Below the pieces are notes generated by a model. It saw nothing but the letters and a program-made list of their open reading frames with translations, did no database searches and was not told the DNA's origin. A DNA stretch of 61,631 bases, counting the filler, from Perkinsus olseni (Eukaryota): assembly GCA_013115125.1 (NCBI GenBank). It is 6 parts of 6 records of this genome, joined end to end, with 100 filler letters (N's around TTAATTAATTAA, not from the genome) between each part and the next. Parts side by side here need not be neighbours in the genome. Positions count along the whole stretch, not along the records: positions 10,347 to 20,573 come from JABANN010000893.1; 5 more parts are not named here. One strand, written 5' to 3'. This document shows positions 10,920 to 20,673 of this stretch, one piece after another (position 1 is the stretch's first letter; every line of letters begins with the position of its first letter). The position numbers and the translations under genes were made by a program.

Positions 10920-12197
10920 TTACGCGTCTATGCAACTTTGAATTACCCGGGTGGCGCCAGAGGGGATTTGAACTACTCGTGTGCAGGGAGGTCCCAATCT
11001 CTCATTCCACGCTTTTGTGGTGAAGCTCTCCTTAACAACGGGCTCCGCGGGAGCTTTGATACCGATAAGTCTGCTACCATGATCGATGAAGAAGTCGTGT
11101 GCGGCAAAGAAGGGCATGCCGAGCAGGAAGGCACTCTCCGAGTCATCGAGCGAAAGCCGATCTTTTATTTGAACTGTACACCAGAGGTCGCCACAAACGA
11201 AGGCGTAGTCGCTCAAATTAATTTCAAAGGCCGGTGAACCGTCAACTTGAATATCGATACTAGGGAGTCGATTCACCATGGTCTTGCGGCACCAAATCCT
11301 CCGATGCCCGTCGAGAAATGCGACCAAGTTGCGCTTCTTCCCTTTATAAAACTCTCCTGTCCAGTCGATGCGCTCCTCGCCGAACTCAGCTTCAATAGTA
11401 TCCAATATCATTGAGAAGACCTCACTTGGGATAGTGGAAGTGTCGCTGCCGGTATCGAGGACCACGTGGAAGTGTCCTCCTTCGCCCCAGAGTTGTTTCC
11501 CGTGAGCGGCGTCGGACGAACTCTTCACCCAAGCCGCTGATGCAACCATAGCGCTCATCGTCGCAGCCCAGGGCGCTTCCTGGATAGGGAAGAAACGTGT
11601 ACCTCTAACGTGTTCGGGTGACCTCCCGAGAACTAGCCGGCCAGTTAGCCCGATGGAGAACTTGGACACATGAATGGAGGCGGTAGGGTTGTTGAAGCGC
11701 AGCAAGTGTTCAAGGAACGATGGTTCTTGAACTGCATTTTGCACGCGCGGATTGAAGCTCACTCCGAGCACTGCATGCGGTTGATTTTTCTTTATCATCG
11801 TAGCGTTGACCACAAGGCCGATTTGTAGGTTCCTGATCTTTTGCTCATCGTACTCCAATGCCACTCTTCGGTTAACGAATTTGACCACGTCTTTGTCGCC
11901 GTAGCTGATGGTGCGGATACGCTGGGAGAGCAGACCTTTCAGGTCGCACGGGTCATCAAGGGGACAGAAGTAGCAACCCGATACAAGATACTCGCATGAA
12001 CCAGGACCATAGACGCTCTCATACCAACCGCCATAAACTAGGTATGTCTGCCGACTTCCAGTGTCGACATACAGTGCTATCGTACGACCATCAAACGTCA
12101 TTTTTACTTTGTTGTGGCTCATCGGAAAAATCAGTGGTGAAATGGCGTGAACCACCTTCCAAGCCACTGCCGAATGGACTAGCGCGCGTCTTAACAT
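10920..12197 (-). CDS. Pepsin-like (A1) aspartyl protease, intronless
   Basis: 425-aa ORF with two catalytic motifs, LYVDTGS and VVLDTGS, plus flap-region ISYGD, AVLG and a C-terminal LLGMPFF...IG. Confidence 0.88.
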   Translation of the reverse strand: MLRRALVHSAVAWKVVHAISPLIFPMSHNKVKMTFDGRTIALYVDTGSRQTYLVYGGWYESVYGPGSCEYLVSGCYFCPLDDPCDLKGLLSQRIRTISYGDKDVVKFVNRRVALEYDEQKIRNLQIGLVVNATMIKKNQPHAVLGVSFNPRVQNAVQEPSFLEHLLRFNNPTASIHVSKFSIGLTGRLVLGRSPEHVRGTRFFPIQEAPWAATMSAMVASAAWVKSSSDAAHGKQLWGEGGHFHVVLDTGSDTSTIPSEVFSMILDTIEAEFGEERIDWTGEFYKGKKRNLVAFLDGHRRIWCRKTMVNRLPSIDIQVDGSPAFEINLSDYAFVCGDLWCTVQIKDRLSLDDSESAFLLGMPFFAAHDFFIDHGSRLIGIKAPAEPVVKESFTTKAWNERLGPPCTRVVQIPSGATRVIQSCIDA

Positions 12198-14215
12198 TTG
12201 TAATCTGAAGAACCCTGCAACAGACGGAGCGTAGTGTGCAACCGAGTGCTCTTACGGCGTAAGTCCAGATTAAAATCATCCCCGGCATCCGATGTCTAGA
12301 TCATTCGCTATAATCCATCGTGCGCTTCAAAAATTCAACTTGCGACCCAAACTTCCGTGAAATCGCGGATTGGTGAGGGAATGCTGTGAGCGTTTGCTTC
12401 GCCGAGGCTCACTCTCGATCACTCCGGGTCAAATCTCGCGAGAACGGTATCTGTTTTGCGGCCTGAGCTACTCGTAGGCTCAGCCGTTTCGCCTACGAGG
12501 AACGTCAGCAGTAGTCTTGTACCGAGCCCCGTGTAATCTCGACCGTTCACGCGCCACCCACTGACACGAAGGCGTCAAAACAAGAACCGCCACCAAGAAG
12601 CCACTTGAAATTTCGCTCTCGAACTTTGACATCGCAAGCGGTGGTTCACGATATCTCAATTTAACTAGGACCTAGGAACAGAAGTTACGCGGGAGCGAGG
12701 GAAATAATTAGCCGCACGAAAGAAATAGAGGCTAGCGAGATTGGAATTCCGGCACGGAACTGCTGGAATTGCCATGCGAAACTCATGCGTTGCTCCTGCG
12801 AGAGAGGAAAATTCCTGGGACCTGACGGAGGATGTTGCTCAGGAAGAGCTCAATGCCGGCTCGAGGCCAAAAATAGCAGCATTAATGCCATATACATAAG
12901 GCTCGAAGCGCACCGACGAGAAGTGAACACACCGCGTTGAACGAACAGGTTGGTTCCGCATTCACCAATCAAACGCCCGACTCATGAGTTCGATTGGTCA
13001 CCATCATTAGTGAATGCGGTAAGAGCCCTCGGCAATGGAGACACGCCTAGCGAGCCACCGACGCTTGGGACGCTGCCGCATTCAAGTATTTGCACGTCCG
13101 AGCCTTCCTGGGTTATAGTGTATCATGGCGCTCGACATTATTATTAAGGATGTTGTCAAATGATGGTATCAAACGTATCACCAACTTGCCACTTTCGTGG
13201 GAGATTCCGTTGTTCACAGGTGGTACATCCCTACAGATCACTTGACAATATTCTGCGAGTGGGCGCCCGCCGCTTTCCCGTTCGAGGGTGTTCTTGCGAC
13301 CAGAATCCCTGCGATTGCACTTTGTGAATATCGAATCTCGAATCAGCCAAGCGTTGTGGTAGCCAACGCACATTATTGTTCTTAGATACTAGCTGAGGCC
13401 CAGCTACTGGGCTACGTTGTCATTATCATACCTTCTCGTTTCGCGTTCCACAGAAAGTGGGTTGCCGGCCATGAGTACGGCTCAGTGGCAGAGAATAGGC
13501 ATGCAGACTTGAATTTCAAGTCTTGAAACTCAAGCCATTCGAGCACGAGACAGATCACAATACCAGTCGATCAGCAGTGACGGAAGAAGTTGCTTTTTGG
13601 CCATGTTGTGTGCCATGCTCGACCCAGCGGTGACAAAAAGGAAGGCGGGCGGCCTCCATTCACCGTCTGCCATCCTTGTACGACATAGGGCGATACAGAT
13701 GGCAGAGGTCTCGTATAAGAGAACCGCGTCGATCGAGTTGGCGATGTCACTCTTCTCATCCGCGGCGCGGTGGACACTAAGGTGTTTTCTGGCGACGGCA
13801 TCAAGTGCTGCATCTGATTGGATTCTTCGAGTCGGCGAATCTTTCGAGATAATAGTCTGAGCTTGGACAAAATCTCCTCGACCTCTCCAGCGACCGACCC
13901 AGCTCGCTCGCGGCCCGTCCTCGTAGGCGGTATCGGAGTGGCCGGAAACCTGTGAGACGCGAAAGGCATTAGATGCCTGTCCTGAAGAAAGACACTCCAC
14001 TGCTATTGCTCCTTACTGCGGAGGGAGAACAGCGTCGATGTTATTGGATTGCTTCGTGACACCTGCTGGCGACGGAGATGCGTTTCCCTGAGCTCAATGA
14101 GCTCCATTAAATGAAGGTGGACCTCGCAGTCACCGGATTGCCCGGCTCTCTGTCAGCGGCTCTCAGTCGCTTGGGAAGCTAGTAGCTTCAAGCTACCTCA
14201 GGGCTCCTGATGGAT

Positions 14216-14542
14216 TCACGACGACCCCCTGGGGGGCTGCGGTAGCCGCCACCTGGCGAGAGTAACGGCAGACGGTGCAACTTGATCGCGTCGTTCACTT
14301 CTGGGAAGAATTTTCATCTGATAAGCCTGATTCGATTCTAGTTTACCATCTTCTAAGGCGATACGCGCAGCTGGATGGATCTTCAGTAAGGCACGGTCCA
14401 AAATCTCATGCAGTCTTGAATTGAGGCGGGTTTGTATCCGGTCGCGTTCCCTAAGGGATGGCCACGCTGAATGCGCCGGCCGCGACCTACCCCATACAAA
14501 CCTCAAACGATCGAGATCTCGAGACATTTCGTCAAGCTTCAT
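14216..14542 (-). CDS. Hypothetical protein (possibly continues into 13571-13969)
   Basis: Coiled-coil-like ORF (MKLDEMSRDLDRLRF...). No family recognised. Confidence 0.25.
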   Translation of the reverse strand: MKLDEMSRDLDRLRFVWGRSRPAHSAWPSLRERDRIQTRLNSRLHEILDRALLKIHPAARIALEDGKLESNQAYQMKILPRSERRDQVAPSAVTLARWRLPQPPRGSS

Positions 14543-15169
14543 TTCATCTCGCTCTCGACCGAGACGATCGACTCGATCGTGAAGGGTTCGTAACTGAGAG
14601 CTTTCACAATCCAGAAGCTAGAGGCATCTGATCGCTAGTGCAGACGAGCTCGACCCTCGGGGGGCTGAGCTAGAATTATGGTGCATGATTATGGTGGGAG
14701 CGCTCCTCATATGATATGCTCACCGTTGGGGAAGGCCAGAGTTCACCGCCTCGAGGCGAGATCCTTCTCGTCAGCTCTTCGTTTTCACGTTTCAACCTGC
14801 TTCAAGAACTGTCGTCTTTTCTTACTTTTTCATACAATTCACGTACGATCGCTACAATTCGACGCCTGATGGCCGTTTCGTGCTACTTGTCGTTCAGCCG
14901 TCTGGTCTTTTCGAGCTCTCGAAAGGATATCTCCTCGTCCTCATCCTTGGCACGGTGATTGTTCGAGCTAGCAGCGTGATCACAAAGCATCACAGAAATC
15001 TGGAACTCCCCGTCACCTCACAAGTCAAGGAGCCGGCAGCCATGCGTCAGCTCTACGTATTGAGGACGCCTCCAACGAGACAGCGGAGGCTACATTAACA
15101 TCAGTAAACATGCAACAGCAAAATGACATGCGGGAAGCAAATAATTGCAAGAGACGAAAGCCACAGGAC

Positions 15170-16461
15170 TCAGTCGTCTTCTGGTTCGCCGATGCAACTG
15201 CGCACAAGCCAGGCGATACCGGTGCGGCGTTGAACAACTTTTCTGCAGGCTGGTCCATTCCGTTTATTCCACGATTTCACAGTGCTGGTCTTCCGTGTGA
15301 CGGGTCTCCTTGGAGCTCTGAGACCAATCAACTTGCGGCCAAAATCGAAGGAGACTTGGCAGTCGGCGAAGAAGTGATTGCTGAGTATGAAGAAATCCAT
15401 TGATTCATCAACAATGAGTTGGCCTTTCACTTGAAGTCTACACCAGACCTCATCACATACCTGCACGTGATTGCTCAGGCGGATCTCGAGCGTGGATGCA
15501 TCGGCAACTTGAATACCGATTACAGGGAGGCGCTCGGTGAAACTTCTGCGGAAGCAAATCAGGCCAGTAGCATCGATGTACGCTGCCAACGTCGGATCAT
15601 CCGTGGAGTAGGCCTCGTTTGCCTGGGCAACGTGATCTGGCCCAAACTCGACCTCAATAGCTTCCCATATCATCGAGAATAGCTCCTTGGGAACAATACT
15701 GATTTCAGCGCCAGTATCGAGAACAATGTTGAAATGCCGTTCTCTATTTGATAGTATCGTCATTCGATCGGTATCAGAGGGACCCTTCACCCAGACCGCT
15801 GCTGCAACCATCGCATTCATTGTCCCTGCCCAAGAGACTCCTCGAGAGCAAGGACAGTCGTCCCTTCGGTCTGTTTTGTAGACTCTCCGAGCACCAGCTT
15901 CCCAGTTATTCCGAGGTATCTCTTCGATACATGCACAGAGACGGTGGGCTCGGTGGAACTTAGAAGCTTTTCGAGGAAGGAAACTTTGCCGGCTGCACGT
16001 AGCGCTTGGGAAGCGAAACTCAGTCCAAGCGCTGCCAACGGTTGCTTCTTCTTGAGAATGCGTGAACTGCCAACCATCAATCCGATTGTTAGGTTCTCGA
16101 TCTTGCGTTCACCAACTTTCACGTTCACTTTTCGACTTACGAATTTATTGACATCTCCACCGCCATAAAGTTGTTCGTCTACTTCCTGAGCCAGCAAGGT
16201 GTCGAGGTTACACGGGTCGGTCGGAGGACAGAATTAGCAACCCGAGATGAGATATTTGCAGGTACCAGGGCCGTAGAGACTTTCATACCAGCCACCGTAC
16301 ACTAGGTAGGAGAAGTCGCTTCCTGTATCGACGAGAAGTTTAATCACATGACCATCGAAGTTCATATTAACTTTCGTGCGCTTCATTGACAACGACAGCG
16401 CCGAAGGGGCGAAAGGCAGTGCCCCCGTCACTGCCAAGCGGAGGGTCGCGGATCGCGGCAT
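15170..16461 (-). pseudogene. Pepsin-like aspartyl protease paralogue, disrupted
   Basis: Collinear with 10920-12197 (LLVDTGS, YLVYGGWYESLYGPG, IVLDTGA). It has an in-frame stop at 16234-16236 (SGC*FCP versus SGCYFCP) and a frameshift near 15820. Confidence 0.8.
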
Positions 16462-16679
16462 TGGAAACCAAATAAAGCCTGCCACAGATAGAAAGCGGCA
16501 TCGTAGAGCCTCTTGACGAATGTGTGTGTGCCACTTTATGATAAAGTCTTTATCGTCACCAGCTCAGGAAGATCCACGGCGACCAGCTGAGGCAATAAGA
16601 TTGAGCTCTTTGTTGACTCGACATTACCGAGTTATTTAGTTAGCTCCTAGGTGAGTCACCTGAGGTGACAGAACTACAT

Positions 16680-16829
16680 TGTAAAGGGGACAATTATTGT
16701 GTACCACTAAGATCTGCTTGATCGATCATTCAGCGTAGCGTAGCTATGCAACACTATCGATCCGTCTAGGATTAGATAAGTATATCACTTCCTACCAGAC
16801 CACCAAGGTTGAGTTGGCTCCAATCTACA
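16680..16829 (+). repeat. Putative 5' LTR (150 bp, TGTA...TACA)
   Basis: Begins TGTAAAGG and ends ATCTACA, one base before a TGG PBS. No second copy is in the window, so the left edge is inferred. Confidence 0.65.
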
Positions 16830-16830
16830 G

Positions 16831-16850
16831 TGGTGCCCAGACCCAGGACT
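16831..16850 (+). promoter_or_regulatory. Primer-binding site complementary to a tRNA 3' end
   Basis: TGGTGCCCAGACCCAGGACT. Its reverse complement AGTCCTGGGTCTGGGCA-CCA reads as T-stem, acceptor strand and CCA. Confidence 0.8.
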
Positions 16851-16878: not shown

Positions 16879-17889
16879 ATGACAGCTGACTCTACAACGA
16901 CTCAATCGGCTCCAGGTGGTCATACTAGCCTTCCCCCGCCTTTCGGAGGAGTTCCTTCCGAATCCATCACAGAGTTTTTAACTCGTTATGGTCTCTGTGC
17001 AAAAGCCAACGGCTGGGATGAGCAAGAGGCTTGCTGCAAGCTTTCTACTTGTCTCATTGGTCGCGCTTCGCAGGTTTATCTTTCTCTGGATCCTATGATT
17101 CAGTCCTCTTACAACGCTCTTCTTTGTCGACTCATCACTCCTCCCTATCAGGCAGCGGCTTCCTTACGTGATCGTGTACTCCAACCCGGTGAATCTGTCG
17201 ACACTCTCCTCTACGAGCTTAATAAGTTGTACTTCGAAGCCCATTTCGTCGCCCCAAACTTGGCCTTAGCCCCGGACAAGTTCCCTATCTTTGACGACCT
17301 TATCAAAAGCGACACTTCTGATAGCTACCATCGCGATATGATTTTGAAGGTATTGGATGCTCTACCTCCTGAGATATCTTCACGCCTACGGGTTATGCAG
17401 TTTACTAAGGTGGATGACTTGGCTTATCAAGCACGGATCGAGCTCGCTACTCAGTCCTACGACTCTGCAAGGACTTCAACTACGAGTACTCCCGATACTA
17501 CACCTTCGATCTCTACTATCTCTCTCAGCGACGAGCAGCAAGAAGTTGAGGAACTTCGAGGACAAGTTGCAGCCCTTACTGAAGCCGTCTATGCCGGCCG
17601 CGGTCCAAATCGACGACAATATGGTTTCAACGGCCGTAATGGCAAGAACGGCAAGGGGCAAGGTGGCAAGGGCTCGTCAAGCAAGAGATGGTGTATCTAT
17701 CATAAAACTGATAGTCACTGGACCTCCGAGTGCAAGGCTATTACGAGATTGGCTCGGGAGCGCAATGGTGATAGTGGTAACATCTCTAATATCTCCACTG
17801 GTAACTACCCAAACGGGGAAGGGACGTCGGTATCTACCGGTCCGTCGTCCTCACAAGTACCTTTGTTGGATCAAGAAGATTCACAGTAA
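16879..17889 (+). CDS. gag: Retrotransposon Gag
   Basis: PPPFGG..ESITEFL...NGW capsid-like start, QPGESV motif, and a C-terminal CHHC knuckle WCIYHKTDSHWTSEC. Confidence 0.88.
   Translation: MTADSTTTQSAPGGHTSLPPPFGGVPSESITEFLTRYGLCAKANGWDEQEACCKLSTCLIGRASQVYLSLDPMIQSSYNALLCRLITPPYQAAASLRDRVLQPGESVDTLLYELNKLYFEAHFVAPNLALAPDKFPIFDDLIKSDTSDSYHRDMILKVLDALPPEISSRLRVMQFTKVDDLAYQARIELATQSYDSARTSTTSTPDTTPSISTISLSDEQQEVEELRGQVAALTEAVYAGRGPNRRQYGFNGRNGKNGKGQGGKGSSSKRWCIYHKTDSHWTSECKAITRLARERNGDSGNISNISTGNYPNGEGTSVSTGPSSSQVPLLDQEDSQ
17808..17850 (+). promoter_or_regulatory. -1 programmed ribosomal frameshift signal (C CCA AAC plus downstream hairpin)
   Basis: X XXY YYZ heptamer in the gag frame. The -1 frame opens just after TAA at 17802 and runs into LVDTGAS. 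A GGACG..CGGT-ATCT-ACCG..CGTCC stem follows. Confidence 0.75.
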
Positions 17890-20573
17890 ATCCGGTATCT
17901 TGTCGAGCTCTTGTCGATACTGGTGCGTCAGCATCGTTCATTGACCAGAAGCTCATCTCTACTCTTGGACTCGACAAATATATTCAAAGGCTATCGAAGT
18001 CTCTACAGTTCTCTACTGCTCGGTCTACTCTCTATGTACATTCCAAAATCGGTCTACAACTTCATCTTGAGGATAATCCATCCCAACAATTCACTCACTT
18101 CTTTTACATTGCCGCCTTAGGTAATCTTTCTTCATGTATACTTGGTCACGACTTCCTCTCCAAATACTCTGCTAAGTTAGAGTTAGGTCATCATCATCCA
18201 CAAGGAGGTCATCTTACATTTGCAGCCTCGTCTCGTATTCAGGACACTCCCAGTCCATCTCACTCTACGGCTACTCCATCATCGGCTCAAGTTGACCCAC
18301 AACCACTTTCAGAAAAGGCCCAAAAGCTACTATGCCCTTGGCGACCTTTACGAGCCTGCTCCGGCACCGGTTATCAGTTCCGAGTACGTCCACTACGACC
18401 AGATGAGGTCAAGGATACTCCAGAACAAGAAGTCACATGCGAAATCCGGTGGCCTAGAAGCGACGATCGTGTACAAGTTCAAAATCCGGCTGACTATTCG
18501 CAGAATCTTCTGTCTCTATTATCGGACGAGGAAAACGCTCTTTAATACCAAACAGCATTCTCCGACACTGGAAAATTTTATTACCCGTCCTGACATAGAA
18601 CGGGTCTACCGTTCTGAAACGATAGTAACATTTTGATAGATCCAACACCATCAGTTCATCACCGACATTGAAATGAGAGCGCAGAGAACCAAGCACTTCA
18701 GCAGTGCTGGGACCGGAATAACTCGAAGGTATACCGAGAGCATTATTAAAGGATCGTAGGTCTATCACCGGTCTCACCGGCGTACTATGGCCGGGTTGAC
18801 GAATAGGAAAACATACAGCAGTTGGGGCTCCTTGAGGTAGGTCTGCTGGAGAGACCTCTTTCCACCATCCTTTGGACTGATACGAGCTGATTTCCGACCA
18901 GCAATTGCGGCCCGGGGGCATTGCAGGAAGCAACCCATCACTTTGATGAAGTACTTCTGAAATGGTTTTCGCGTTCTGCATTGAAATACCATGCTTGGTA
19001 CTATGATGATCTCTCTCTGGTAGGTCAACATCTCTCTCAACATGCCGGATACATCTCATCGTTCGCTCGAGTCTTAGGATGGGACTTTCCCCCTTCTAAG
19101 CGTTCTCTCCTTCATCATGATCATGGCTCTACCGCTTGGGTGCAGCATCTCGGTTATCTTATTCGTCTGGAAGAAGGTGGTGATCTTGAGTACCGATGTC
19201 AGGTCAAATCTCTACCAGAAATCGACAGTGACCATATTACGAAACGTATCGCCTACTCCATCGCTGGTCACTTCACGGACTTACTGAAGCTCCACCCCGA
19301 GTGTAGGAGCCTCTGTGATGCTATCCGTTCTTATGCTGGAAAATTGGAAAAATGGGATGCTGTTATCACGAACTCGTCTGTTCGTTCCTACTTGCTATCC
19401 CTCATTGATGCTCTGAAGGCCTTCTTACCCAAGTCCTCTTGTATTCATACTGCTTCCTTCAACAGTACCAAAGCAAGGTTATTTTCAGATGCATCGGCAA
19501 CAGCTTCCGGCTACTCTATTTTGGTTGGTGAAGTCCCTCTGGAAGAAGTTTCTCGGACCTGGTCACAGCGAGGGTCTATCTGGCATATTAATAAGGAGGC
19601 GAGGAGTCTCGCGGAGGCTCTCAGCGCCCTGGTAACATGGCATGAAGAACGACGACTTTCTATTTCCTCTATCGAGGCCTATGTTGATAGTAGCACGGTG
19701 TATCGGTGGTGTAAAGGTTCTCCATCAACTATCAAGACCAAAACTGTCGAACGCCAAGCTATAAATAGACTGCTCAATGCTATACGAGAACATGTCGAAT
19801 ATTTTGCTGAAAATGGTGTCAAGTTCCAACTGAAGCTCATCACTAGTGAGGAGAACACCAGAGCTGACTACCTCAGCAGACAAGCTTGGATTCCCCTCTC
19901 TCCCTCTCCAACAAGCCCACCGGTCCTACAACTTTTGGGTGCTATTTCGGCATCGCCGCAATCTACTTCTACTGCAACTTGTAACTACCAGAATGACCCA
20001 GATCTACGAGCCCTTTTCCAGTCAGTTCGTGACCATCGACCTCTGTCGTACGCCATTCCTCCTCAGTACCGACGTTGTTACAAGCAGCTTTCTGTTCAGA
20101 ACAACACCTTATACCGGTCCCATATATCTCTCGATGTTGGACATCCGGTGACGGTCTCCATTCCGGCAAGAAAAGTACGAGGTCGACTAATTGCTGACAT
20201 TCATAAGGAGTTCAACCATGCGGGTGTTCCCAAGATTCGAGAAGAATTGTCAAAGCACTACTATTGGCCCGGCATGGATCGTGACATCGGCACCTACATC
20301 TCTACTTGTGAAATCTGAGTGCAAGTAAAACCCAATACGGGCAAGTCCTACAAGCACACTGGTTCTCTCACGAAGTTCCTCACTAAGCCCATGGAACGCC
20401 TCTACTTTGACGTACTCATCCTCATCCCCTTCTCGGACCGGTGCTTACTATTATTGATGGCTTCTCACGCTATGCCTTTGCTTTCGAACTCGTTTCGGGT
20501 GAGAACACCAACAGTGTTATCAAGGTCTTCACCTTCTACTTCTCCTTATACCCTCTACCACAAGAAGTTTTTT
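17808..20573 (+). pseudogene. pol: Retrotransposon Pol (PR-RT-RH-INT), disrupted by an internal inversion, a nonsense codon and a frameshift
   Basis: Protease RALVDTGASASFI...ILGHDFL. The RT N-half is on the minus strand (18544-18902). WYYDD, LFSDAS and ADYLSR follow on the plus strand. The integrase has CEI*VQ (TGA 20316-20318) and a frameshift near 20430. Confidence 0.88.
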
Positions 20574-20673
20574 NNNNNNNNNNNNNNNNNNNNNNNNNNN
20601 NNNNNNNNNNNNNNNNNTTAATTAATTAANNNNNNNNNNNNNNNNNNNNNNNNNNNNNNNNNNNNNNNNNNNN
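20574..20673. other. Artificial contig spacer
   Basis: N44-TTAATTAATTAA-N44. Confidence 0.98.

Follow-up and report, generated by a model that had tools for sequence, protein, structure and literature searches.

How does one half of a reverse transcriptase (RT) come to lie backwards inside an LTR retrotransposon, with every base apparently kept? The question is raised by a pol gene of Perkinsus olseni (GenBank assembly GCA_013115125.1) lying in the window, which here means the whole stretch of DNA that was analysed, 61,631 nucleotides with filler included, made up of six contigs each about 10 kb long with artificial spacers between them. The plus-strand pol frame runs into a TAA stop at 18543-18545, as the original prediction had described; it contains 7 stops within 18543-18888, and is open from there to 20315. 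The answer reached here, held with good confidence, is that a real one-off inversion of 357 b took place in a single dead copy of a multi-copy element.

The inverted segment and its bounds

Comparison with a sister copy on contig C531 and with the family-majority contigs of four out of four sequencing runs places the N-terminal half of RT on the minus strand, as a flipped piece of 357 b at 18545-18901. Residues 46-164 of the natural C531 reading frame match 18900-18544 on the minus strand (95% identity) and residues 165-311 match 18903-19343 on the plus strand, and a P. chesapeaki protein (P0001) and a Logan protein (P0002) change strand at the same places. The DNA comparison with C531 gives the same split: 18261-18544 and 18902-19930 align on one strand, 18542-18901 on the other (E 2e-162), which is far beyond chance. 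An RT N-terminal half inverted within pol had been proposed from the window alone, and these three comparisons, which fall on the minus strand there and on the plus strand either side, bear it out. The piece holds 119 codons, including the first catalytic, invariant Asp; its right break cuts inside the conserved FG..GP motif, and the YYDD motif lies outside it.

The two junctions, 18544|18545 and 18901|18902, are exactly reciprocal, show no microhomology, and have 0 bases lost or gained. The earlier claim that flipping the piece costs no base thus holds against both C531 and the majority contigs. The return of the same frame downstream was seen as well; it is no separate surprise, because any inversion without gain or loss preserves the frame. 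The proposed bounds of 18544-18902, and with them a 2-bp TT/AA microhomology, did not survive. Within 5 b of both breaks those bounds and their TT/AA equivalents leave 3 mismatches to C531, against 1 for 18545-18901, and the majority contigs of all four runs give 18545-18901 with 0 letters fitting both sides. Since the latter placement fits better and no letter is shared by the two sides, the 2-bp microhomology is probably an artefact of break placement, a choice that alters homology calls in human variants according to the available part of PMC10327140.

The element and its surroundings

The element begins after the 5' copy of a 4-b target-site duplication at 16676-16679 on the plus strand, the orientation of all features of this copy except the inverted piece. 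A 5' LTR of 150 b with TG...CA ends occupies 16680-16829, followed at 16831-16848 by an 18-nt primer-binding site complementary to the 3' end of the host tRNA-Phe(GAA). That tRNA was identified by a second pattern search; an earlier pattern had matched 9 times, and ARAGORN, run on 5 loci, detected no tRNA. In several loci (L131, L132, L136) tRNA-Phe(GAA) is followed about 280 b on by tRNA-His(GTG). A gag-like frame at 16879-17889 is 54% identical to the corresponding part of P0001 and has no Pfam match. The 5' part of pol, at 17805-18544, encodes an aspartyl protease (PF13975, 36.5 bits, above cut-off) and a spacer up to the left break. The gag and pol frames overlap by about 85 b (17805-17889; 2605-2614 in L009), and since they do so in different frames, pol is probably reached by ribosomal frameshifting. 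Beyond the inverted piece, the 3' part of pol (18902-20315) carries the RT C-terminal half with YYDD, followed by an RNase H-like domain and the H2C2 zinc finger of integrase (PF17921, 46.9 bits). That zinc finger is interrupted by an in-frame stop at 20316-20318, across which P0001 and a P. olseni protein (P0004) continue, and a frameshift near 20413 (20412-20414) in the integrase core changes frame relative to both proteins and is a length difference to all four runs. The element-bearing contig, C3225, ends at 20573, inside the integrase, and is followed at 20574-20673 by an artificial spacer made of an N run, TTAATTAATTAA and a further N run.

The 3' end of this copy most likely lies on contig C345 (L010), where the 3' copy of the target duplication follows a 3' LTR differing from the 5' LTR at 4 of 150 positions. 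The link is made by the matching duplication and by similar divergence, not by contiguity: C345 is 93% identical to C1088, a divergence close to that of the right part of the copy in the window. Together, the two point to one element from end to end. The C345-side 3' flank is a loose end in runs X1 and X7. Across the assembly six 5' LTR flanks and five 3' flanks were found, and 4-b duplications pair four of the six with four of the five; the family therefore occupies at least 7 insertion sites, some of them perhaps solo LTRs. A purine run (polypurine tract) precedes the 3' LTR in L008 and L010.

The insertion lies just upstream of a pepsin-like aspartyl protease gene (15170-16563) split by frameshifts, one of a tandem series of intronless copies (PF00026) on the minus strand at 10920-16563. 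A 7-8-7 fold-back scar of hAT-excision format (+14 b, one mismatch) occupies 16648-16669, 10 b upstream of the LTR, and run X8 appears to be without both the scar and the retrotransposon (3 short records). Involvement of a hAT element in the inversion was considered and rejected, neither junction having a 14-b fold-back scar or a gained base.

State of the copy

Judged by its sequence, the copy is dead and decayed, bearing the inversion, the in-frame stop, the integrase frameshift and LTRs 4/150 apart, and its pol frame would yield no RT, RNase H or integrase. Of the description as a precise inactivating inversion, the first part is the best fit; the inversion need not be the event that inactivated the copy, other lesions being present besides. 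Divergence from the family majority varies along the copy from 1 to 7%, and short length differences to the run contigs occur at about 17117, 18466 and 19592. Coding differences comprise 14 synonymous and 14 non-synonymous among 28 sites, drawn from 40 of 273 rows and too few and too selected for a test of selection. The inversion may have persisted because a dead transposon copy is nearly neutral and collinear copies exist.

Classification and relatives

The inversion sits in a Ty3/gypsy-like LTR retrotransposon whose host is a Perkinsus species, most likely P. olseni. The element resembles Ty3/gypsy (Metaviridae) elements in its TG...CA LTRs, target duplication, tRNA primer site and polypurine tract, in the order gag-PR-RT-RH-IN, and in its integrase with H2C2 and rve domains; the order PR-RT-RH-IN is common to Ty3/gypsy and BEL/Pao elements, unlike copia. 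It differs in a divergent RT, which scores 20.3 bits against RVT_1, under the cut-off of 29.6, and in that the RNase H of P0001 scores better with the cellular-type PF00075 than with PF17917. A single-sequence search of the PDB gave 0 matches and a single-sequence fold reached a pLDDT of 34.6. A profile built from 13 natural RTs of the group placed Ty3 RT first among solved structures (4ol8, E 1.2e-7), with HIV-1 and MMLV RT close behind. The nearest sequence over RT is P0001, at 54% identity, and P0004 is 93-98% identical over the integrase part. A large group of Perkinsus elements (55 matches; L022-L048) includes the family; its divergent RT mostly falls under the RVT_1 cut-off, and its RNase H carries an HIN.KE motif (window 19470-19900; P0001 1403-1541). 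The group may be an undescribed lineage. Listings from the literature searches include no paper on Perkinsus LTR elements and none describing an LTR element with part of its RT inverted internally.

Orientation in other copies

In the assembly, two of two candidate copies cover the inverted region, namely the window copy and C531; the latter is collinear, with one reading frame across both break positions. C531 is itself decayed by frameshifts and stops, and carries a 500-b insertion with TGTACGA-type degenerate repeats between protease and RT (L009, about 1710-2207). The majority contigs are collinear in all four runs used, which come from 3 studies, and 19 of 26 distant family loci cross both break positions in one alignment. 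In the comparison with other genomic copies, every other copy seen is collinear and the inverted form is seen in one copy only. A wider survey of strand switches gave the same picture: among 96 loci with retroelement matches (182,793 b covered), the window copy alone switches strand. These loci, some overlapping, come from 108 given; 15 were left out because they duplicate the window locus or C531 or are not retroelements. Intact elements are favoured in the set, which would also miss short inversions. Junction reading frames were also sought among proteins. On the minus strand one of 68 candidates matched (P0002), and it is collinear; on the plus strand there were two among 8000 scored, neither spanning the junction. 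A metagenome scan of 54 candidate stretches returned one locus, a match of 17 residues only.

Evidence from sequencing runs

Four of 20 runs were used (X1, X2, X7 and X8), as assembled contigs and not as raw reads. Contigs with 0 differences to the window cover 16000-16707 and 19141-19465 in X1 (depth 108 and 111) and X2 (92 and 75), depths at the single-copy level, and 19887-20099 is identical in X7. The same insertion exists, then, in the samples X1, X2 and X7. In X8 an empty-site read indicates at least one allele without the insertion (3 short records, a weak basis), which suggests that the insertion is polymorphic among samples. Over 18295-19059 only the collinear majority contig was found, at depths of 698 (X1), 399 (X2) and 1378 (X7); as a rough guide, in X1 and X2 the depth of the collinear majority is some 4 to 7 times the single-copy level. 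Among the pieces listed (32 of 298), none from X1, X2 or X7 carries the window junctions.

The last result is one ground for a rival explanation, that the copy is collinear in the cell and that the piece was reversed by the assembler or by chimeric library molecules. The junction contig is seen in none of the four runs and the collinear form only in all four. The missing contig is nevertheless weak counter-evidence, because X1 and X2 likewise lack copy-specific pieces over 19825-20570, and contigs drop minor paths. The piece is also closer to the majority than its flanks are, differing at 4/357 positions (1.1%) against 26/689 (3.8%; Fisher p = 0.017); 17525-18018 is similarly close (9/494, p = 0.57), and the window copy may be a mosaic. 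Family contigs overlap by 73 identical bases, typical of de Bruijn assembly, and in simulation a piece with 4 differences almost surely shares a 73-b stretch with other copies, which could serve as a shared graph node. Against such an origin, the piece has private letters with respect to the majority, 4 in X1, X2 and X7 and 7 in X8, and so is not a collapsed consensus. De Bruijn junctions must be read through, and with inverted repeats of at most 5 b the graph would offer nothing on which to turn the piece, which favours a real event. Chimeric library molecules are unlikely, since the reciprocal junctions, with nothing gained or lost, would need making twice independently. Religation of restriction fragments was rejected, a palindrome lying at one break only and none being common to both, and the single strand switch among the retroelement loci also counts against an artefact. 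On the contigs available, an assembly or library chimera, which had been put forward as an alternative, is accordingly disfavoured and rated unlikely.

A further rival is a reciprocal rearrangement on a larger scale, in which each of two copies broke once and the assembler merged the result into what looks like a local inversion. It would account for the closer likeness of the inner piece, compared with its flanks, to the majority, and a shared 73-b node is available for the merging. Breaks would, however, have to fall at near-homologous places in two copies of a small family, which is very unlikely, and C345 matches the 5' target duplication while its divergence fits the right part of the copy in the window. 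Such a rearrangement is given a very small probability.

A mechanism for the inversion

With a real inversion preferred, the question becomes how the piece was turned. The likelier route would be Ku-dependent end joining, in which two breaks lying 357 b apart were sealed blunt after the segment between them had turned round; the alternative, a possible though less favoured one, is a double template switch during replication or break repair. Junctions without homology and with little or no loss are expected of end joining and are seen here, and the available part of PMC10327140 states that NHEJ requires no breakpoint homology. A Ku domain of the host scores above cut-off on C3024; the part of PMC8062965 at hand does not document the end-joining genes of Perkinsus. 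A search for inverted repeats at the breaks found pairing at 8 of 40 in-register positions, against a null mean of 10.0 (P = 0.81), and a longest inverted word of 5 b, against a null mean of 5.9. One point against a real inversion is the rarity of two independent breaks in such close proximity. The idea that a fragment of dinucleosome size (357 b) was the cause, speculation from one case, was dropped.

Does the inverted copy act?

A further possibility is that the copy is still transcribed and acts as a natural antisense decoy: an LTR-driven transcript would contain 357 nt of antisense RT, which would pair in trans with RNA of collinear copies and feed Dicer/Argonaute silencing. An LTR is present, and the genome appears from its sequence to have RNA-silencing genes, with two Piwi-domain loci (L124-L126; C1637, C1548) and two neighbouring long reading frames with RNase III domains, Dicer-like, on C1880 (L127, L128, L130). 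In X7, which is RNA only by guess and whose contigs give neither level nor strand, a window-identical piece has a depth of 33 against 0-4 in the 5' flank. In the same run the collinear form has a depth of 800-2400 and, over 17000-19600, one of 1378-2364 against 0-4 in the unique flank, which hints at strong transcription of the family, should X7 be RNA. A family at that depth does not look silenced; moreover, no intramolecular hairpin can form, the sense piece having been replaced, and the insertion is absent from at least one X8 allele. The antisense decoy is accordingly considered quite improbable.

An orientation switch, on which the original prediction had speculated, is, in the form of a programmed, reversible device of the invertase or shufflon type that turns RT on and off, practically negligible and unsupported: in its favour, the change is precise and the family taken together has both orientations, but these sit in different copies 4-7% apart with the inverted form seen in one copy only, the breaks lack inverted recombination sites by the pairing and word-length counts above, 7 reading frames scanned on the contig contain no recombinase domain, the downstream integrase is broken regardless, and RT is supplied by collinear copies.

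As it stands, the inversion matters little, rearrangements in dead transposon copies being expected. If true, it offers a clean junction pair, free of homology and of loss, in an organism about whose break repair little has been described, and, the insertion being polymorphic, an isolate marker. It would gain greater weight only if the antisense RT stretch drove small RNAs against its own family, in which case the inversion of an internal segment, with no hairpin involved, would give Perkinsus a means of controlling retrotransposons.

Comparison with known systems

DNA invertase switches (Hin/Gin, fimS, shufflons) bring about a precise change of orientation in place. The window copy shares that feature, but is without inverted recombination sites, the reading frames scanned around it encode no recombinase, and the collinear orientation observed is that of other copies, so that two states at one locus were not seen. 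In maize, Mu killer is a rearranged transposon copy that silences its family. The defective window copy could likewise make RNA complementary to active copies; it differs in having no inverted duplication, hence no hairpin, and in giving no sign of family silencing.

According to the available part of PMC4965816, ectopic recombination depends on inverted repeats, and duplications are left behind by staggered breaks. The present case is like the break-and-repair inversions of that source in having no repeats at the breaks, in being a single, non-recurrent event, and in its reciprocal junctions; it is unlike them in size, 357 b against chromosome scale, and in its blunt ends, with no inverted duplications. 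Primate microinversions, attributed to template switching or microhomology-mediated break-induced replication, measure 17-33 b and all have flanking inverted repeats of at least 3 b in the part of PMC8755829 at hand. With these the inversion shares a pure in-place replacement by the reverse complement, and it departs from them in its 357 b and in an inverted repeat of 0 b, or 2 b only under less parsimonious bounds. In conclusion, because repeats, duplications and flanking inverted repeats are all absent, blunt end joining would be the simplest explanation that remains.
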